The notes beneath the pieces were generated by a model. The model saw nothing but the letters and a program-made list of their open reading frames with translations. It was not told the DNA's origin and ran no database searches. 23,209 nucleotides of DNA from Escherichia coli (lineage in GTDB: Bacteria; Pseudomonadota; Gammaproteobacteria; Enterobacterales; Enterobacteriaceae): the NCBI RefSeq assembly GCF_003334355.1, contig NZ_QOWP01000045.1, one strand, 5' to 3'. A program made the translations under genes and the position numbers. The first letter of the stretch is position 1; each line of letters opens with the position of its first letter. Below are positions 7,986 through 16,096 of the stretch, one piece after another.

Positions 7986-8999
7986 ATGACGTACGCAGTG
8001 GAGTTTGACAACGTCTCGCGGTTGTACGGTGACGTGCGCGCAGTAGATAGCGTCAGTATTGCGATAAAAGATGGTGAGTTCTTCTCTATGCTGGGGCCGT
8101 CCGGCTCCGGCAAAACCACCTGCCTGCGCCTGATTGCTGGCTTCGAACAGCTTTCCGGCGGGGCTATCTCTATCTTTGGTAAACCCGCCAGCAATCAGCC
8201 ACCGTGGGAGCGGGACGTGAATACTGTCTTTCAGGACTACGCGCTATTTCCGCATATGTCGATTCTTGACAATGTCGCCTATGGGCTGATGGTCAAAGGC
8301 GTGAATAAAAAGCAGCGGCACGCAATGGCGCAAGAGGCGCTGGAGAAAGTGGCGTTGGGGTTTGTACAGCAACGTAAACCGTCACAACTTTCTGGTGGTC
8401 AGCGCCAGCGGGTTGCTATCGCCAGAGCATTGGTGAATGAACCGCGCGTATTGCTGTTGGATGAACCGCTCGGCGCACTGGATCTCAAATTGCGTGAGCA
8501 GATGCAGCTGGAACTGAAAAAACTGCAACAGTCTCTCGGTATCACTTTTATCTTCGTTACCCACGATCAGGGCGAAGCGTTATCGATGTCCGATCGTGTG
8601 GCGGTTTTCAATAATGGACGCATTGAGCAGGTCGATTCCCCGCGCGATCTCTATATGCGCCCGCGCACGCCGTTTGTTGCCGGGTTCGTTGGTACATCGA
8701 ATGTTTTTGATGGACTGATGGCAGAGAAACTTTGTGGCATGACGGGAAGCTTCGCCCTGCGACCGGAACATATCCGCCTCAACACCCCTGGTGAACTGCA
8801 GGCCAATGGCACGATCCAGGCGGTGCAATATCAGGGCGCGGCAACTCGTTTTGAACTGAAATTGAACGGCGGTGAAAAACTGCTTGTGAGTCAGGCCAAT
8901 ATGACAGGCGAAGAACTGCCTGCCACGCTCACGCCCGGACAACAGGTGATGGTTTCCTGGTCGCGTGATGTGATGGTGCCGCTGGTTGAGGAGAGGTGA
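7986..8999 (+). CDS. ydcT: ABC transporter ATP-binding protein (PotA-like), 337 aa
   Basis: Walker A GPSGSGKTT, ABC signature LSGGQRQR and Walker B LLLDEP are all readable in the translation. Confidence 0.9.
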   Translation: MTYAVEFDNVSRLYGDVRAVDSVSIAIKDGEFFSMLGPSGSGKTTCLRLIAGFEQLSGGAISIFGKPASNQPPWERDVNTVFQDYALFPHMSILDNVAYGLMVKGVNKKQRHAMAQEALEKVALGFVQQRKPSQLSGGQRQRVAIARALVNEPRVLLLDEPLGALDLKLREQMQLELKKLQQSLGITFIFVTHDQGEALSMSDRVAVFNNGRIEQVDSPRDLYMRPRTPFVAGFVGTSNVFDGLMAEKLCGMTGSFALRPEHIRLNTPGELQANGTIQAVQYQGAATRFELKLNGGEKLLVSQANMTGEELPATLTPGQQVMVSWSRDVMVPLVEER

Positions 9000-9941
9000 A
9001 TGGCGATGAATGTATTGCAATCACCTTCACGTCCAGGTCTGGGTAAGGTGTCCGGTTTCTTCTGGCGTAATCCGGGGCTGGGGCTGTTTTTACTGCTGCT
9101 TGGCCCGCTAATGTGGTTTGGCATTGTCTATTTCGGCTCGCTGCTGACACTGTTATGGCAGGGATTTTATACTTTTGACGATTTCACCATGTCGGTAACG
9201 CCGGAACTGACGCTGGCGAATATCCGTGCGCTGTTTAATCCGGCGAATTACGACATCATTCTCCGCACGCTGACTATGGCTGTGGCAGTCACTATCGCCA
9301 GCGCCATTCTGGCTTTTCCAATGGCGTGGTATATGGCGCGCTATACCAGCGGGAAAATGAAAGCGTTTTTTTATATTGCGGTAATGTTGCCGATGTGGGC
9401 GAGCTACATTGTTAAAGCCTATGCCTGGACGTTATTGCTGGCAAAAGATGGCGTGGCGCAGTGGTTTTTACAACATCTGGGGCTGGAACCACTGCTGACT
9501 GCGTTCCTTACATTACCTGCGGTGGGCGGAAATACGCTGTCAACTTCCGGGCTGGGGCGCTTTCTGGTGTTTCTCTATATCTGGTTGCCGTTCATGATCC
9601 TGCCCGTTCAGGCGGCGCTTGAGCGTTTGCCGCCGTCATTGTTGCAGGCGTCGGCTGATCTCGGCGCACGTCCACGACAAACCTTTCGCTATGTGGTGCT
9701 GCCGCTGGCAATCCCGGGTATTGCCGCTGGCTCTATCTTTACCTTCTCACTCACACTGGGCGATTTTATCGTCCCGCAGCTGGTTGGTCCTCCAGGATAT
9801 TTTATCGGCAATATGGTTTATTCCCAGCAGGGGGCGATTGGCAATATGCCGATGGCGGCGGCATTCACCCTGGTGCCGATTATTCTCATCGCACTGTACC
9901 TGGCGTTCGTGAAACGTCTGGGAGCGTTCGATGCACTCTGA
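9000..9941 (+). CDS. ydcU: ABC transporter permease (PotB-like), 313 aa
   Basis: Hydrophobic multi-TM ORF. Its ATG (9000-9002) directly abuts the ydcT stop TGA (8997-8999), consistent with translational coupling. Confidence 0.9.
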
Positions 9942-10725
9942 ACGCGCACCGTTTTTCCTCAAACTGGCGGCCTGGGGCGGCGTTGTTTTCCTACATTTTC
10001 CCATCCTGATAATCGCCGCCTATGCGTTTAACACTGAAGATGCGGCGTTTAGTTTTCCACCGCAGGGCCTGACGCTGCGCTGGTTTAGCGTGGCAGCACA
10101 GCGTAGTGATATTCTTGATGCAGTGACACTGTCACTTAAAGTGGCGGCGCTGGCGACATTAATCGCGCTGGTGTTAGGGACGCTGGCAGCTGCCGCGCTG
10201 TGGCGACGAGACTTTTTCGGCAAAAACGCCATTTCGCTGTTACTGCTGCTGCCCATTGCGCTGCCGGGCATTGTCACTGGTCTGGCGTTATTAACCGCCT
10301 TTAAAACCATCAATCTGGAGCCGGGATTTTTCACCATCGTGGTCGGTCATGCGACTTTTTGTGTAGTTGTTGTGTTTAACAATGTCATCGCCCGTTTTCG
10401 CCGCACCTCGTGGAGTCTGGTTGAGGCGTCAATGGATCTTGGGGCCAATGGCTGGCAAACCTTCCGCTACGTAGTGTTGCCGAATCTCAGTTCGGCGTTA
10501 CTGGCAGGAGGAATGCTGGCGTTTGCCTTGTCGTTCGATGAAATCATCGTTACGACCTTTACGGCAGGTCATGAACGAACGTTACCGTTGTGGTTGCTCA
10601 ATCAGCTTGGGCGACCGCGTGATGTACCGGTAACTAACGTGGTGGCACTGCTGGTTATGTTGGTAACAACCTTGCCGATCCTGGGGGCCTGGTGGCTAAC
10701 CCGCGAAGGCGACAATGGTCAATAA
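9931..10725 (+). CDS. ydcV: ABC transporter permease (PotC-like), 264 aa
   Basis: Hydrophobic ORF overlapping the ydcU 3' end by 11 nt; second permease of the array. Confidence 0.9.
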
Positions 10726-10746: not shown

Positions 10747-12171
10747 ATGCAACATAAGTTACTGATTAACGGAGAACTGGTTAGCGGCGAAGGGGAAAAA
10801 CAGCCTGTCTATAATCCGGCAACGGGGGACGTTTTACTGGAGATTGCCGAGGCATCCGCAGAGCAGGTCGATGCTGCTGTGCGCGCGGCAGATGCAGCAT
10901 TTGCCGAATGGGGGCAAACCACGCCGAAAGTGCGTGCGGAATGTCTGCTGAAACTGGCTGATGTTATCGAAGAAAATGGTCAGGTTTTTGCCGAACTGGA
11001 GTCCCGTAATTGTGGCAAACCGCTGCATAGTGCGTTCAATGATGAAATCCCGGCGATTGTCGATGTTTTTCGCTTTTTCGCGGGTGCGGCGCGCTGTCTG
11101 AATGGTCTGGCGGCAGGTGAATATCTTGAAGGTCATACTTCGATGATCCGTCGCGATCCGTTGGGGGTCGTGGCTTCTATCGCACCGTGGAATTATCCGC
11201 TGATGATGGCAGCGTGGAAACTGGCTCCGGCGCTGGCGGCAGGGAACTGCGTAGTGCTTAAACCATCAGAAATTGCCCCGCTGACCGCGTTGAAGTTGGC
11301 AGAGCTGGCGAAAGATATCTTCCCGGCAGGCGTGATTAACGTACTGTTTGGCAGAGGCAAAACGGTGGGCGATCCGCTGACCGGACATCCTAAAGTGCGG
11401 ATGGTGTCGCTGACGGGCTCTATCGCCACCGGCGAGCACATCATCAGCCATACCGCGCCGTCCATTAAGCGTACTCATATGGAACTTGGTGGCAAAGCGC
11501 CAGTGATTGTTTTTGATGATGCGGATATTGAAGCAGTGGTCGAAGGTGTACGTACATTTGGCTATTACAATGCCGGACAGGATTGTACTGCGGCTTGTCG
11601 GATCTACGCGCAAAAAGGCATTTACGATACGCTGGTGGAAAAACTGGGTGCTGCGGTGGCAACGTTAAAATCTGGTGCGCCGGATGACGAGTCTACGGAG
11701 CTTGGACCTTTAAGCTCGCTGGCGCATCTCGAACGCGTCAGCAAGGCAGTAGAAGAGGCGAAAGCGACAGGGCATATCAAAGTGATCACCGGTGGTGAAA
11801 AGCGCAAGGGTAATGGCTATTACTATGCGCCGACGCTGCTGGCTGGCGCATTACAGGACGATGCCATCGTGCAAAAAGAGGTATTTGGTCCAGTAGTGAG
11901 TGTTACGCCCTTCGACAACGAAGAACAGGTGGTGAACTGGGCGAATGACAGCCAGTACGGACTTGCATCTTCGGTATGGACGAAAGATGTGGGCAGGGCG
12001 CATCGCGTCAGCGCACGGCTGCAATATGGTTGTACCTGGGTCAATACCCATTTCATGCTGGTAAGTGAAATGCCGCACGGTGGGCAGAAACTTTCTGGTT
12101 ACGGCAAGGATATGTCACTTTATGGGCTGGAGGATTACACCGTCGTCCGCCACGTCATGGTTAAACATTAA
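10747..12171 (+). CDS. patD: NAD-dependent gamma-aminobutyraldehyde dehydrogenase (aldehyde dehydrogenase family), 474 aa
   Basis: ORF 10747..12171, 21 nt downstream of ydcV. Aldehyde dehydrogenase hallmarks are readable: catalytic Glu region (ELGGKAP) and Cys region (GQDCTAACR). Matches PatD (YdcW/Prr) from memory. Confidence 0.9.
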
Positions 12172-12210
12172 GGATAATATTGCAGATCGTAAGAGTATGA
12201 GATGATCTTG

Positions 12211-12245
12211 CGTACTGTCAGAGCACTGATTTCTCTGACAGTACG
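12211..12245. terminator. Perfect 13-bp stem hairpin between convergent patD and yncL; candidate bidirectional terminator
   Basis: CGTACTGTCAGAG (12211-12223) and CTCTGACAGTACG (12233-12245) are exact reverse complements with a 9-nt loop. No strong T-tract on either side, so terminator function is tentative. Confidence 0.45.
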
Positions 12246-12267
12246 TGCTGCGTGCAAAATCACTACA

Positions 12268-12363
12268 TCAAATAAACCAGCCAAATCTCATAGAGATAAG
12301 AGTAAACAAACCAACAGCAGCAAAGACATTTATCAGTACTACAGTTCTACTGGAAACATTCAT
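12268..12363 (-). CDS. yncL: Very small single-TM membrane protein, 31 aa
   Basis: Minus-strand ATG at 12363, stop TGA at 12268-12270. Translation MNVSSRTVVLINVFAAVGLFTLISMRFGWFI is one hydrophobic helix. Too short for the ORF track. I recall a 31 aa YncL small protein at this position in E. coli. Confidence 0.5.
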   Translation of the reverse strand: MNVSSRTVVLINVFAAVGLFTLISMRFGWFI

Positions 12364-12557
12364 TTTTGCCACCTTTTATCATTGCCCCTATGTGTATAGT
12401 ACGGGTTAAGAAAATCCGCAATAATACTCATTCTGAAGATGGATAAGGGCAAGTTGCTGTTTGATGATTTTTTCTCAAACTGGTGAAAAAACTTGATGCA
12501 CGTCAAAAAATGACGCATATTTGCGCGCGTTTTATTCATCTGGCTGGACGCCCGTAC

Positions 12558-12731
12558 ATGTCTCTCTATCAACACATGCTTGTTTTTTATGCGGTTATGG
12601 CAGCAATCGCATTTCTTATCACCTGGTTTCTTTCTCACGATAAGAAACGCATCCGTTTCTTAAGCGCCTTTCTGGTGGGGGCAACATGGCCGATGAGTTT
12701 CCCGGTGGCGCTGTTGTTTTCACTGTTTTAA
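12558..12731 (+). CDS. ortT: Small membrane toxin OrtT (orphan toxin, GhoT-like), 57 aa
   Basis: ATG at 12558 gives MSLYQHMLVFYAVMAAIAFLITWFLSHDKKRIRFLSAFLVGATWPMSFPVALLFSLF, two predicted TM helices, matching OrtT (YdcX) from memory. The track ORF 12483..12731 is an upstream extension from a GTG with no RBS. Confidence 0.7.
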   Translation: MSLYQHMLVFYAVMAAIAFLITWFLSHDKKRIRFLSAFLVGATWPMSFPVALLFSLF

Positions 12732-12816
12732 ATCTTACTCACTGGCTTGACGGCACCACGCAGACTTATATCATTTGGATGAATCGATAAATTTCACAAG
12801 TGGCTAAGGAGAAAGT

Positions 12817-13050
12817 ATGTCGCATCTGGATGAAGTCATCGCGCGCGTGGATGCCGCGATTGAAGAGAGCGTCATTGCCCATATGAACGAATTATTAATC
12901 GCCCTGAGCGATGACGCGGAGTTAAGTCGGGAAGATCGCTACACCCAGCAGCAACGTCTGCGCACAGCGATCGCCCATCACGGTCGCAAGCATAAAGAAG
13001 ATATGGAAGCGCGCCATGAACAGTTAACCAAAGGCGGCACCATCCTGTGA
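12817..13050 (+). CDS. ydcY: Small soluble charged protein of unknown function, 77 aa
   Basis: ORF 12817..13050 with AGGAG RBS (AAGGAGAAAGTATG). Position and sequence match YdcY from memory. Confidence 0.7.
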   Translation: MSHLDEVIARVDAAIEESVIAHMNELLIALSDDAELSREDRYTQQQRLRTAIAHHGRKHKEDMEARHEQLTKGGTIL

Positions 13051-13500
13051 TTAAAATGAGCGTCTGGCTACCAACCAGGCGCCAACCACAAGTAAAATTG
13101 CGCCACAAATTGGGCCGAACAACGCCCGTAGTGGTACGCCATGACTGCGGAAGATATCCAGAACCAGACCGCCAATCAGCTGACTGGCGACCAGTACTGC
13201 AATAGTTGTCGCCGCTCCCACATTCTGATATCCGCTGATACTGGCGAAGACAAAAAACGATCCCAGCAAGCCAGGTATAAGTGTCCACCAGCGCACGCTG
13301 GACACCAGTTCGCCAAACCCCGCCATGCCTTGTTTAAACCATAAAATAGAAACAAAGAGCACAATCCCCACCAGTGAGTTCAGCAACATGGCGATGAGAA
13401 TGGTAGAGGAGGTCTGGGTGATGCGCACCATCAGCGTGTTCTGGACAACCAGACCAATTCCGGCGGCAATCAAAAAAGCAAGGGTGAGCGACTGATTCAT
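13051..13500 (-). CDS. ydcZ: Inner membrane protein (DUF606-type), 149 aa
   Basis: Minus-strand hydrophobic ORF. Its ATG (13500-13498) overlaps the mnaT stop (ATGA overlap), implying a mnaT-ydcZ operon. Its stop abuts the ydcY stop with zero intergenic spacing. Confidence 0.8.
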   Translation of the reverse strand: MNQSLTLAFLIAAGIGLVVQNTLMVRITQTSSTILIAMLLNSLVGIVLFVSILWFKQGMAGFGELVSSVRWWTLIPGLLGSFFVFASISGYQNVGAATTIAVLVASQLIGGLVLDIFRSHGVPLRALFGPICGAILLVVGAWLVARRSF

Positions 13501-14015
13501 CCAATCGCGTCCGGTTCAGTGCGCTCGTCGAGTTGCAACTGCATAAATGTCAGATCCAGCCAACGACCAAATTTAGTGCCTACCTGCGGCATTTGCGCGG
13601 TGACGACAAATCCCAGCGACTGGTGGAGATGCAGCGAGGCCTGATTTTGCGATTCGATCCCGGCGACCATGACATGCTTCCCGCAATCCCGCGCTTCATC
13701 AATCAATCGGCTTAACAATTTACGCCCCAGACCTTTGCCCTGATGATCGGGATGGACATAAACCGAATGTTCCACGGTATGGCGAAAACCATCGAAACTA
13801 CGCCAGTCGCCAAACGAGGCATATCCCGTCACTACGCCGTTTTCCTCGCTCACCAGCACTGGATAACCTGCTAAAGTCCGCGCTTCAAACCAGGCAATGC
13901 GGTTATCAGCATCCACCGTTTGGTCATTCCAGATAGCCGCCGTATACAACACGGCGTGGTTATAAATTTCCGCAATGGCAGCACAGTCGGCTTTGCGGGC
14001 AAAACGGATGGACAT
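13497..14015 (-). CDS. mnaT: GNAT-family N-acyltransferase (L-amino-acid / methionine N-acyltransferase), 172 aa
   Basis: Start placed at minus-strand ATG 14015 (MSIRFARKADCAAIAEIYNH...) with GAGG RBS. GNAT acetyl-CoA motif region (HQGKGLGRKLL) present. The track ORF extends a further 78 codons upstream into the divergent region with no RBS. Confidence 0.85.
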   Translation of the reverse strand: MSIRFARKADCAAIAEIYNHAVLYTAAIWNDQTVDADNRIAWFEARTLAGYPVLVSEENGVVTGYASFGDWRSFDGFRHTVEHSVYVHPDHQGKGLGRKLLSRLIDEARDCGKHVMVAGIESQNQASLHLHQSLGFVVTAQMPQVGTKFGRWLDLTFMQLQLDERTEPDAIG

Positions 14016-14195
14016 GTCTGGCCTCAATAAAATAATGATGATGATGTTATCAATACTATCGAAAACAGCCCGAAGCAACGGATTCCTCGATGAAATTATT
14101 GCGTGTTGCAGAGGGGATGTGACGGCTGCAAACAAAACCAATCCCGTGAGCCTGCTACTATTGATGGATTCATGCCAAAAGCACAGGAGAGCATT

Positions 14196-15233
14196 ATGGG
14201 GCAACAAAAGCAGCGTAATCGACGTTGGGTTCTGGCCTCGCGTCCACATGGCGCACCGGTTCCGGAGAATTTCCGTCTTGAAGAAGATGATGTCGCCACA
14301 CCGGGTGAAGGACAGGTGTTACTGCGCACAGTTTATTTGTCCCTGGACCCGTATATGCGTGGACGTATGAGCGATGAGCCATCTTATTCACCGCCTGTTG
14401 ATATTGGCGGCGTGATGGTCGGCGGTACGGTGAGCCGTGTCGTGGAGTCGAATCATCCTGATTATCAGTCTGGCGACTGGGTGCTGGGCTACAGTGGATG
14501 GCAAGACTATGACATATCCAGTGGTGATGATCTGGTGAAACTTGGCGATCATCCGCAAAATCCATCGTGGTCGCTGGGTGTGCTAGGGATGCCAGGCTTT
14601 ACCGCTTATATGGGCCTACTGGATATCGGTCAGCCTAAAGAGGGCGAAACGTTGGTGGTAGCTGCGGCGACAGGACCAGTGGGGGCGACGGTGGGGCAAA
14701 TCGGTAAACTTAAAGGTTGCAGAGTGGTGGGGGTAGCCGGTGGCGCGGAAAAATGCCGCCATGCTACCGAGGTGTTAGGCTTCGATGTTTGTCTTGATCA
14801 CCACGCGGATGATTTTGCCGAACAACTGGCGAAAGCGTGCCCAAAAGGTATTGATATCTATTATGAAAACGTGGGCGGTAAGGTATTCGATGCGGTGCTA
14901 CCGTTACTTAATACATCTGCGCGCATTCCCGTCTGCGGATTAGTGAGCAGCTATAACGCTACAGAGCTACCACCCGGTCCGGATCGTTTACCTCTGTTGA
15001 TGGCTACAGTGCTGAAAAAACGTATTCGCTTGCAAGGTTTTATTATCGCTCAGGATTATGGTCACCGCATCCATGAGTTTCAGAGGGAGATGGGGCAATG
15101 GGTGAAAGAGGATAAAATCCACTACCGCGAAGAAATTACTGACGGTTTAGAGAATGCGCCACAGACGTTTATCGGCCTGCTGAAGGGTAAAAACTTCGGC
15201 AAAGTGGTGATCCGCGTGGCGGGTGATGATTAA
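14196..15233 (+). CDS. curA: NADPH-dependent medium-chain reductase (curcumin/dihydrocurcumin reductase, leukotriene B4 dehydrogenase-like), 345 aa
   Basis: Start at ATG 14196 (MGQQKQRNRRW...) preceded by AGGAGA (14185-14190). Rossmann motif AAATGPVGATVGQIGK present. Track ORF start at 14103 is rejected. Confidence 0.85.
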   Translation: MGQQKQRNRRWVLASRPHGAPVPENFRLEEDDVATPGEGQVLLRTVYLSLDPYMRGRMSDEPSYSPPVDIGGVMVGGTVSRVVESNHPDYQSGDWVLGYSGWQDYDISSGDDLVKLGDHPQNPSWSLGVLGMPGFTAYMGLLDIGQPKEGETLVVAAATGPVGATVGQIGKLKGCRVVGVAGGAEKCRHATEVLGFDVCLDHHADDFAEQLAKACPKGIDIYYENVGGKVFDAVLPLLNTSARIPVCGLVSSYNATELPPGPDRLPLLMATVLKKRIRLQGFIIAQDYGHRIHEFQREMGQWVKEDKIHYREEITDGLENAPQTFIGLLKGKNFGKVVIRVAGDD

Positions 15234-15430
15234 AGTTTCAACGGCGGCGTAAGCCGCCATAAAAATCCAGGCAAAAAGCTTATTTTCAGCTTTAATTAAC
15301 TAACCACATCATTGTTCTGCTGCTAATAACAACAAAGGTGAGTGGTTTATGATTATTCACTTTAATACACCAGGTGAATTCCTTCTGCCATGCAGGCAGG
15401 GTTGGACAGAAAACACGCGAAGGAATTAAA

Positions 15431-16096
15431 ATGCCTGGAACGGGAAAAATGAAACATGTCAGTTTGACTCTGCAGGTTGAGAACGACCTGAAACATCAGC
15501 TTAGTATTGGCGCATTAAAACCTGGCGCACGCCTGATTACTAAAAATCTGGCGGAGCAATTAGGTATGAGTATTACACCTGTGCGTGAAGCATTATTACG
15601 TCTGGTTTCGGTGAATGCGCTTTCTGTCGCACCTGCACAAGCATTTACAGTTCCGGAAGTGGGGAAACGTCAATTAGACGAAATCAATCGGATCCGCTAC
15701 GAACTGGAATTAATGGCAGTTGCTCTGGCTGTTGAAAACCTCACCCCGCAAGACCTTGCGGAACTCCAGGAATTGCTCGAGAAATTACAGCAGGCGCAAG
15801 AAAAGGGCGACATGGAACAAATCATTAATGTAAACAGGCTATTTCGCTTAGCGATTTATCATCGCTCAAATATGCCCATCCTGTGTGAGATGATTGAGCA
15901 ACTGTGGGTCAGGATGGGGCCTGGTTTACATTATCTCTATGAAGCGATTAATCCAGCGGAATTACGGGAGCATATAGAAAACTATCATCTGTTACTCGCT
16001 GCGTTAAAAGCAAAAGACAAAGAGGGATGCAGACATTGTCTTGCTGAAATTATGCAACAAAATATTGCTATTTTATACCAGCAATACAATCGTTAA
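15431..16096 (+). CDS. mcbR: GntR/FadR-family transcriptional regulator, 221 aa
   Basis: Start at ATG 15431 (MPGTGKMKHVSL...) preceded by AGGAA. N-terminal winged HTH (LITKNLAEQLGMSITPVREALLRL) and FCD-type C-domain. Matches McbR/YncC from memory. Confidence 0.8.
   Translation: MPGTGKMKHVSLTLQVENDLKHQLSIGALKPGARLITKNLAEQLGMSITPVREALLRLVSVNALSVAPAQAFTVPEVGKRQLDEINRIRYELELMAVALAVENLTPQDLAELQELLEKLQQAQEKGDMEQIINVNRLFRLAIYHRSNMPILCEMIEQLWVRMGPGLHYLYEAINPAELREHIENYHLLLAALKAKDKEGCRHCLAEIMQQNIAILYQQYNR

Follow-up and report, generated by a model that had tools for sequence, protein, structure and literature searches.

Where convergent genes leave no spacer between them, termination signals can be carried in the coding sequence of the partner. 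For Escherichia coli, a 2007 survey counted 58 convergent pairs that truly overlap and predicted Rho-independent terminators of this kind for 23 of 116 such genes (Lillo & Krakauer 2007, PMC2174442), and Rho-dependent 3' termini were described by four defining features, among them ends within downstream coding regions and an excess of C over G downstream (Dar & Sorek, PMC6061677). Signals placed in the coding sequence of a partner are thus already described in general (PMC2174442; PMC6061677). Stem-loops at convergent boundaries were also reported to act as bidirectional terminators by polymerase collision (Ju et al. 2019; Wang et al. 2022, bioRxiv 10.1101/2022.10.23.513370), and repetitive extragenic palindromic (REP) elements lying between convergent genes both to terminate transcription and to stabilize mRNA (bioRxiv 10.64898/2026.03.23.713779). 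Same-strand genes of E. coli that overlap by a few nucleotides are coupled by termination-reinitiation (Huber et al. 2023, PMC10666635). Here, we analyze the ydcY-ydcZ-mnaT locus in a stretch of 23,209 nucleotides (nt) of E. coli DNA (contig NZ_QOWP01000045.1 of assembly GCF_003334355.1), called the window in the following, in which the stop codons of the convergent genes ydcY and ydcZ abut and the stop codon of mnaT overlaps the start codon of ydcZ. As a clear and well-supported case, the locus combines two known arrangements, a Rho-dependent 3'-end stem-loop located in the codons of a convergent neighbor and an enzyme-transporter operon with probable translational coupling. We consider it probable that two elements explain it jointly, (A) a hairpin embedded in ydcZ that sets the 3' end of ydcY together with Rho, and (B) a coupled operon of mnaT and ydcZ encoding an enzyme and a transporter. 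The features that carry the argument are the following:

12817 to 13050, + strand: ydcY coding sequence, 77 amino acids, DUF2526 family, with the stop codon TGA at 13048-13050 (open reading frame list, RefSeq).
13048 to 13053, both strands: abutting convergent stop codons (direct reading of the sequence).
13051 to 13500, - strand: ydcZ coding sequence, 149 amino acids, half-size drug/metabolite transporter (DMT), Pfam PF04657 DMT_YdcZ, with five hydrophobic segments (open reading frame list, RefSeq, profile match).
13060 to 13082, both strands: stem-loop of 23 nt in ydcZ codons 140-147, proposed to define and protect the 3' end of the ydcY mRNA (folding).
13083 to 13350, + strand: stretch with more C than G, candidate Rho loading (rut) region (base composition; rut function inferred).
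13087, + strand: steady-state 3' end of the ydcY mRNA (Term-seq of Adams et al. 2021, coordinates converted).
13365, + strand: peak of the Rho region, about 280 nt beyond the 13087 end (Adams et al. 2021).
13497 to 13500, - strand: ATGA in which the start codon of ydcZ overlaps the stop codon of mnaT; termination-reinitiation coupling is proposed to occur here (sequence, open reading frame list).
13497 to 14015, - strand: mnaT (yncA/mddA) coding sequence, 172 amino acids, GNAT N-acyltransferase of the phosphinothricin-acetyltransferase-like group (RefSeq, family matches).

Both junctions had been pointed out in a first-pass annotation made from the letters of the DNA, and both were read correctly there. 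The TGA of ydcY is directly followed by TTA, which is the TAA stop codon of ydcZ on the opposite strand, so that the gap is 0 nt and the junction reads ...CTG TGA TTA AAA TGA..., and the open reading frame list and the RefSeq boundaries, which agree between an identical strain and K-12 MG1655, concur with this reading. The TCAT at 13497-13500 is ATGA on the - strand and contains the ATG of ydcZ (13500-13498) and the TGA of mnaT (13499-13497). The gene names and family assignments given for ydcY, ydcZ and mnaT likewise agree with RefSeq, Pfam and a match in the PDB. Judged from published counts and from the six convergent pairs in the window, of which the other five have gaps of 35-112 nt, neither convergent stops with zero gap nor an ATGA overlap is rare as a class in E. 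coli. The ydcY/ydcZ pair resembles the spacerless genes of Lillo & Krakauer (2007) in that the signal lies in the coding sequence of the partner. However, their cases are predicted Rho-independent terminators in truly overlapping pairs, whereas ydcY and ydcZ abut and the element between them has no U tract.

On the + strand, the hairpin GCGUCUGG-CUACCAA-CCAGGCGC has an 8-bp stem and a folding energy of -13.4 kcal/mol, compared to -11.6 kcal/mol for the fold of the - strand, and in a context of 46 nt it reaches z = -2.7. Term-seq placed the 3' end of ydcY at K-12 position 1517918 (+) and classified it as 'primary (ydcY), antisense (ydcZ)' (Adams et al. 2021, PMC7815308). This end appears three times in a file spanning three growth conditions, by inference with one entry per condition. 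K-12 MG1655 coordinates equal window positions plus 1504831 (window position 1 is K-12 1504832), and the end accordingly falls on 13087, which is 37 nt past the ydcY stop codon, within ydcZ and 5 nt downstream of the hairpin. No U tract precedes it (..GGCGCCAACC^A); the tail is CAACC and, read as CAACCACAAG, lacks a uridine-rich tract after the stem, and a terminator scan gave no call at the junction. Further downstream, a region of bicyclomycin-sensitive Rho termination antisense to ydcZ peaks at K-12 1518196 (+), with a score of 15.8 (p = 2e-25) that applies to the region and not to the 13087 end itself (Adams et al. 2021, PMC7815308). The count columns of this region are 164, 9, 213 and 185; when they are taken as upstream and downstream counts of untreated cells followed by the same counts with bicyclomycin, the ratio of downstream to upstream reads goes from 9/164 to 185/213 upon treatment. 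In the antisense-ydcZ RNA (+ strand, 13050-13350), C accounts for 28-37% and G for 15-28% in windows of 60 nt, with C equal to G at 13110.

Because the Term-seq end sits 37 nt inside ydcZ, the ydcY message overlaps ydcZ. The first-pass annotation had argued from the missing spacer that neither strand has room for a terminator and that the convergent transcripts must overlap. The former is true of intergenic DNA and fails for the locus as a whole, as the 3'-end stem-loop sits within the ydcZ coding sequence; the latter is borne out for ydcY, whose message extends 37 nt into ydcZ, apparently in all three conditions, and whose further read-through is stopped by Rho.

The end of ydcY has much in common with the termini described by Dar & Sorek (PMC6061677), namely a stable stem-loop followed within a few nucleotides by a precise end, the lack of a U tract, more C than G downstream and bicyclomycin-sensitive read-through, and their collection includes ends inside a downstream gene. 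Unlike their cases, the stem-loop of ydcY lies in the last codons of an abutting convergent gene, and comparative data indicate that these codons are chosen for structure; the trimming by exonucleases (PNPase, RNase II) is here proposed by analogy. In the mechanism that we favor, ydcY would be transcribed past its own stop codon into the end of ydcZ, and the hairpin at 13060-13082 would define a stable mRNA 3' end at 13087. As the hairpin has no U tract, polymerases would most likely continue through the C-rich antisense-ydcZ RNA and be released by Rho within about 300 nt, after which exonucleases would trim the ydcY RNA back to the hairpin, as in the model of Dar & Sorek. The two genes would then share DNA for 3'-end formation, and no fewer than the final 37 nt of ydcZ would have their complement in the ydcY mRNA.

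The locus was compared across 80 Enterobacteriaceae species, in each of which the three genes were located; ydcY is adjacent to ydcZ in 75 of them, and in 53 of these 75 the gap between the two genes is -4 to +8 nt. The gaps are distributed as follows:

Gap of -4 nt: 4 species.
Gap of 0 nt: 15 species.
Gap of +1 to +8 nt: 34 species.
Gap of 17 nt or more: 22 species.
ydcY not adjacent to ydcZ: 5 species.

The tightness of the junction is thus conserved, the exact value of zero is not. To compare the native codons with synonymous alternatives, the last 14 codons of ydcZ were redrawn with the protein sequence fixed, and the minimum free energy (MFE) of the native sequence was set against those of the random ones. 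On the ydcY strand of tight junctions (gap of at most 8 nt, n = 53), the mean native MFE was -19.0 kcal/mol compared to about -11 kcal/mol for random codons, the median percentile was 0.01, and 36 of the 53 species had percentiles of 0.05 or less. At spaced junctions (gap of at least 17 nt, n = 22), the mean native MFE was -11.1 kcal/mol and the median percentile 0.72, and 5 of the 22 species had percentiles of 0.05 or less. A Mann-Whitney test between the two groups, which treats the species without phylogenetic correction, gave p = 2e-5. When ten windows of 14 codons along ydcZ were compared, the terminal window was the sole outlier, with a mean energy difference (dE) of -7.8 kcal/mol versus -2.9 to +1.8 kcal/mol in the other nine. 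On the ydcZ strand the signal was weaker, with a median percentile of 0.12-0.15 versus 0.01-0.02 on the ydcY strand in the tight group.

The choice of individual codons points in the same direction. AGA and AGG are rare Arg codons in E. coli. At Arg146, AGA is used in 48 and AGG in 6 of the 78 species that have Arg at this position (54/78 together), whereas these codons occur in 0 or 1 species at the Arg columns 26, 70 and 147; the codon of Ala141 is GCC in 67 of 79 species. AGA at position 146 keeps a U-G pair on the ydcY strand and leaves an A-C mismatch on the ydcZ strand, which fits selection acting on the ydcY strand and the stronger signal found there. Base-pair covariation would hardly be informative for this element, since there is next to no room for double changes given the invariant Trp codon and the constraint from coding. 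From these comparisons we conclude that the stem-loop is probably maintained by selection, mainly as 3' structure of the ydcY mRNA. The idea that the last ydcY codons hold a further structure, which would protect the ydcZ mRNA, was considered as well and rejected, as these codons showed no clear signal of comparable structure (median percentile 0.19-0.30).

The longer spacers are found mostly in Citrobacter and contain palindromes that by eye resemble REP elements (...CTTATCAGGCCTAC..., GCCGGATAAGG...). In the Citrobacter species of the set (L007-L024), spacers of 26-176 nt with REP-like palindromic units, for example CCTGATGGCGCT..GCTTATCAGGCCTAC, lie between the ydcZ stop codon (at about 4450) and the ydcY stop codon, and in one species (L023) several copies follow one another in tandem; most of these species have a decayed ydcZ hairpin. 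In a few further genera, the spacer contains hairpins of an unrelated kind. The hairpin within ydcZ is mostly decayed where a longer spacer is taken up by REP-like or other palindromes, and this is the case in several separate genera. The in-gene hairpin thus tends to degenerate once the junction has an extragenic palindrome, a relationship that is a correlation. As in the REP elements reported from 3' untranslated regions, the REP-like palindromes of Citrobacter occupy the ydcZ/ydcY junction and could do the job of the in-gene hairpin of E. coli. Unlike in that case, the E. coli junction is without a REP element, and the proposed functional replacement rests on correlation. Two species have insertions between ydcZ and ydcY, a Citrobacter metagenome-assembled genome (L014, 1349 nt) and Enterobacter sp. 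kpr-6 (L046, 725 nt), and the former retains the ydcZ hairpin (percentile 0.003) despite its insert.

Similar hairpins at convergent boundaries raise the question whether the E. coli element is instead a shared, overlapping bidirectional terminator of the type described by Ju, Wang and Liu, at which polymerases paused from both sides are released without Rho by head-on and trailing collisions, so that both transcripts end at the boundary. In favor of this, the palindrome lies exactly at the convergent boundary and folds on both strands, and on the ydcZ strand the hairpin, which contains one A-C mismatch, is followed by CAUUUUAA / CAUUUUAAU. The collision model requires a stem-loop without canonical U tract between convergent genes, and it can coexist with the mechanism proposed above; the known examples, whose 3' ends overlap, share with ydcY/ydcZ the stem-loop at the boundary. 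However, those terminators were reported to be Rho-independent, whereas the read-through of ydcY is strongly sensitive to bicyclomycin and limited by Rho, and only one of the two 3' ends is mapped here: the supplements of Adams et al. list no - strand 3' end at the junction, nor anywhere between K-12 1517800 and 1518399. The weaker synonymous signal on the ydcZ strand and the lack of a call in the consensus scan also argue against it. Moreover, the collision model works best for highly expressed pairs, and we found no sign of high expression of mnaT-ydcZ. We therefore regard a bidirectional terminator as rather unlikely. The - strand hairpin with its UUUU had also been considered as a good intrinsic terminator for ydcZ and was downgraded, since the tail after the hairpin varies among species (UUUUAA or UUCUGA), is weak and not conserved, and the synonymous signal is weaker on this strand. 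The TERMITe and SMRT-Cappable-seq supplements do not mention ydcY, ydcZ or mnaT.

Alternatively, the junction may have no function, with the zero gap resulting from genome compaction and the hairpin being a by-product of the codons for G-A-W-L-V-A-R-R at which exonucleases happen to stall. Tight or overlapping convergent pairs are indeed common (58 overlapping pairs in E. coli, PMC2174442), the gap drifts between -4 and +8 nt among species, and in a context of 91 nt the fold of the single sequence reaches just z = -1.7 to -1.9. Compaction does not explain that native codons are about 8 kcal/mol more stable than random synonymous ones solely in the terminal window of ydcZ, that a rare Arg codon is retained at a pairing position, or that the structure has mostly decayed in several separate genera where an extragenic palindrome is present, and we consider this explanation very unlikely. 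Nevertheless, several observations weigh against a selected hairpin that sets the ydcY end together with Rho. Besides the regional nature of the Rho score and the treatment of species in the group comparison, Adams et al. list no 3' end for mnaT-ydcZ on the - strand, and hairpin pausing or polymerase collision could also contribute to the ydcY end. Most of the spaced junctions come from Citrobacter, and five spaced species retain the hairpin. The codons that form it are at the same time those of the conserved residues G-A-W-L-V-A-R-R, and synonymous diversity at the 3' end of ydcZ is just slightly below the average of the gene (0.58 vs 0.65). Because this general drop is slight, the case for selection rests on the structure-specific tests.

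At the other end of ydcZ, the overlap with mnaT is -4 nt in 66 and -1 nt in 14 of the 80 Enterobacteriaceae species, without exception. The -4 ATGA overlap is the commonest configuration among same-strand gene pairs of E. coli, of which 707 out of 2,987 are spaced by -8 to +6 nt (PMC10666635). Inspection by eye of the sequence before the ydcZ ATG showed just a weak GGA motif and nothing like a strong Shine-Dalgarno sequence. Because the overlap is short and the Shine-Dalgarno sequence weak, ydcZ is likely translated by reinitiating ribosomes: mnaT and ydcZ would form one operon, and most ribosomes that translate ydcZ would have finished mnaT first and then reinitiated. The pair has the ATGA or TGATG/TAATG type of same-strand junction studied by Huber et al. 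(2023, PMC10666635). Here, a soluble enzyme is paired with a membrane protein, the two are not known to be subunits of one complex, and their coupling is a prediction from the sequence.

The first-pass annotation took the ATGA overlap as a hint at a functional link between the acyltransferase and the membrane protein. ATGA alone is uninformative in this respect because it is the commonest overlap; synteny over long evolutionary distances is the stronger evidence, and it supports the link well beyond E. coli. Distant YdcZ homologs with 32-52% identity were collected from a search of 1.84 billion representative proteins, and the contigs that encode them were inspected. In 8 out of 10 informative distant proteobacterial lineages, an ortholog of MnaT is encoded near the YdcZ homolog, in six of them directly upstream; a further lineage (P0155) was left out of the ten, as its contig ends at the locus. 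The arrangements are:

P0143: GNAT directly upstream, -4 overlap.
P0149 (Tabrizicola cluster, Alphaproteobacteria): GNAT directly upstream, -4 overlap.
P0175: GNAT directly upstream, -4 overlap.
P0187: two GNAT genes upstream, -4 overlaps.
P0226: GNAT directly upstream, -4 overlap.
P0197 (Pokkaliibacter cluster, Gammaproteobacteria): GNAT directly upstream, +3 gap.
P0208: reversed order, ydcZ followed by GNAT and a LysE-family exporter.
P0165: GNAT two genes away on the other strand.
P0160 (Kaustia cluster): no GNAT neighbor.
P0245: no GNAT neighbor.

Where DNA was available, the neighboring GNATs proved to be full-length MnaT orthologs, with 36-59% identity for those encoded upstream and 34% for the one in P0208. 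This synteny supports the view that MnaT and YdcZ may form a functional pair, and, as far as gene order can tell, mnaT-ydcZ is an old proteobacterial module. Many distant lineages (L088, L091, L092, L094, L098 and the P0175 contig) have a gene for an XRE-family regulator (HTH_31/HTH_3), frequently with a cupin domain, next to the GNAT-YdcZ pair, and in L098 a LysE-family exporter gene follows the GNAT gene. The E. coli pair is flanked by curA and mcbR, with no XRE-type regulator at the locus.

MnaT aligns over residues 1-170 with Salmonella YncA (PDB 3dr6; E = 2e-100) and also matches Pseudomonas aeruginosa PA4866 (E = 2e-61). It is thus the ortholog of Salmonella YncA/MddA and a close relative of PA4866 within the group of detoxifying GNATs that also comprises phosphinothricin and arsinothricin N-acetyltransferases, in line with its RefSeq name mnaT. 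An assignment as equivalog of the ArsN1 (arsinothricin) or PAT (phosphinothricin) resistance enzymes was rejected, as its scores are below the curated NCBIfam cut-offs (127 vs 210 bits for ArsN1b, 97.6 vs 170 for ArsN1a and 90 vs 300 for PPT). MddA was reported to N-acetylate methionine sulfoximine and methionine sulfone, which blocks their toxicity (Hentchel & Escalante-Semerena 2015, as described in citing papers). The MnaT/MddA literature that we searched treats the enzyme alone, and no mention of a conserved YdcZ partner was found in it; among the papers that name ydcZ, none appeared from title and abstract to deal with the function of YdcZ.

YdcZ matches PF04657 over its full length (E = 5.4e-24; residues 6-143 aligned with model positions 2-140 of 140), and its Kyte-Doolittle profile has five hydrophobic segments, which makes it a half-size unit with a predicted topology; double-length homologs of about 300 amino acids exist. 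A sequence search of the PDB gave no match for YdcZ or YdcY, and NCBIfam has no family for YdcY, YdcZ or OrtT. Lys and Arg residues of YdcZ are split nearly evenly across the two sides of the five predicted helices (3 vs 4). With five helices per DMT half-unit, the ten-helix fold would require an antiparallel dimer, and YdcZ may therefore have dual topology. The family is labeled 'putative inner membrane exporter' in Pfam. Small DMT amino-acid exporters are known and, together with this label, suggest export as the direction of transport. By analogy, MnaT would acetylate a toxic amino-acid analog such as methionine sulfoximine or methionine sulfone, and YdcZ would most plausibly export the acetylated product or the toxic analog itself.

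It is conceivable that the mnaT-ydcZ overlap reflects nothing but co-transcription and compaction, and that YdcZ is a general efflux protein for small cations or drugs with a substrate unrelated to MnaT. ATGA being the commonest overlap is compatible with this, and 69.6% of gene pairs at short distance do not form complexes (PMC10666635). The ydcZ knockout was also the most paraquat-sensitive strain in one screen of transporter knockouts (PMC9405208). This hypersensitivity, the only YdcZ phenotype that we found, does not point to acetyl-amino acids and, like the two distant YdcZ lineages without a neighboring GNAT, speaks against an enzyme-transporter pair. However, standard Keio deletions leave just the final six codons of a gene in place, and if the library follows this design, deletion of ydcZ would also remove half of the ydcY hairpin, which, in addition to the origin of the result from a single screen, limits what the phenotype says about transport. 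Retention of the pair in 8 of 10 lineages at 32-52% YdcZ identity, in alpha- as well as gammaproteobacteria and including one case of reversed order, is hard to explain without a shared function. An unrelated substrate of YdcZ thus appears unlikely to us.

Compared to the combination of an embedded 3'-end hairpin and a coupled enzyme-transporter operon, a regulatory role of the tight junction goes one step further. Read-through from ydcY, which covers between 37 and about 300 nt and is under the control of Rho, may lower the expression of mnaT-ydcZ by polymerase collision or, in the manner of an excludon, by a duplex of the two RNAs across the ydcZ stop codon. We regard this as improbable. If it were true, weakened Rho activity or induction of ydcY would switch off the acetylate-and-export module, and the DMT_YdcZ family would gain its first substrate class, the N-acetylated methionine analogs.

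The window derives from the E. coli chromosome: a query of 2 kb around the junction found matches that cover 80% or more of it in 5414 of 5426 complete E. coli genomes, and its sequence is 100% identical to strain MLI023K1. The window is collinear with MG1655, yet is not MG1655 itself, since the last ydcY codon is CTG here and CTC in K-12 MG1655 (K-12 1517879), both encoding Leu. An Rfam search of positions 11500-15500 with a permissive threshold matched no RNA family. The genes and promoter candidates around the locus are:

12558 to 12731, + strand: ortT (RefSeq).
12747 to 12774, + strand: sigma-70-like promoter candidate before ydcY, TTGACG-16-TATCAT, 10/12 matches (consensus scan).
14095 to 14123, - strand: sigma-70-like promoter candidate before mnaT, GTCACA-17-AATAAT, 9/12 matches (consensus scan).
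14196 to 15233, + strand: curA (RefSeq).

In the scan for consensus promoters and terminators, site counts were not above those of shuffled controls, so the promoter candidates are predictions only. The study on OrtT depicts one predicted sigma-D promoter for ydcY, demonstrated that YdcY is produced as a protein, and found that it is not an antitoxin for OrtT and that ortT and ydcY do not form an operon (PMC4344625). Compact junctions are routine in the window also between genes on the same strand, with ydcT/ydcU (7986-9000, 9000-9941) abutting at 0 nt and ydcU/ydcV (9000-9941, 9931-10725) overlapping by 11 nt. In the convergent spacer between patD and yncL (12172-12267), Adams et al. mapped a very strong - strand Term-seq 3' end at 12208 (K-12 1517039), which scores 536300 in one condition and adjoins the perfect palindrome GTACTGTCAGAG...CTCTGACAGTAC. 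It is probably the yncL terminator, and the palindrome could also act on patD from the opposite side. A Term-seq 3' end classified as 'orphan' lies at 12526 (K-12 1517357, +), 32 nt before the start of ortT and following ...ACGCATATTTGCGCGC, and may reflect either a small RNA or transcription that stops early in the ortT leader. On the opposite strand, the scan gave a terminator-like site at 12530-12513.

Apparently new are two aspects of the locus, selection at the level of codons for the embedded hairpin and conservation of the MnaT-YdcZ pair over long evolutionary distances, and both are modest in scope. The same 23 nt seem to encode YdcZ residues 140-147 and to shape the 3' end of the neighboring ydcY mRNA, which turns the puzzle of how transcripts terminate without a spacer into a concrete element. 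The structure of one RNA would thereby constrain the choice of codons in a convergent neighbor, including the retention of a rare AGA, and this constraint appears relaxed where a REP-like palindrome has been inserted. Deletion or recoding of ydcZ probably alters the expression of ydcY, and published phenotypes of ydcZ knockouts, such as paraquat sensitivity, may be confounded by this effect. For the uncharacterized family PF04657, the pairing of MnaT with YdcZ offers a specific first hypothesis, namely that export by these proteins may be linked to the N-acetylation of toxic methionine analogs.

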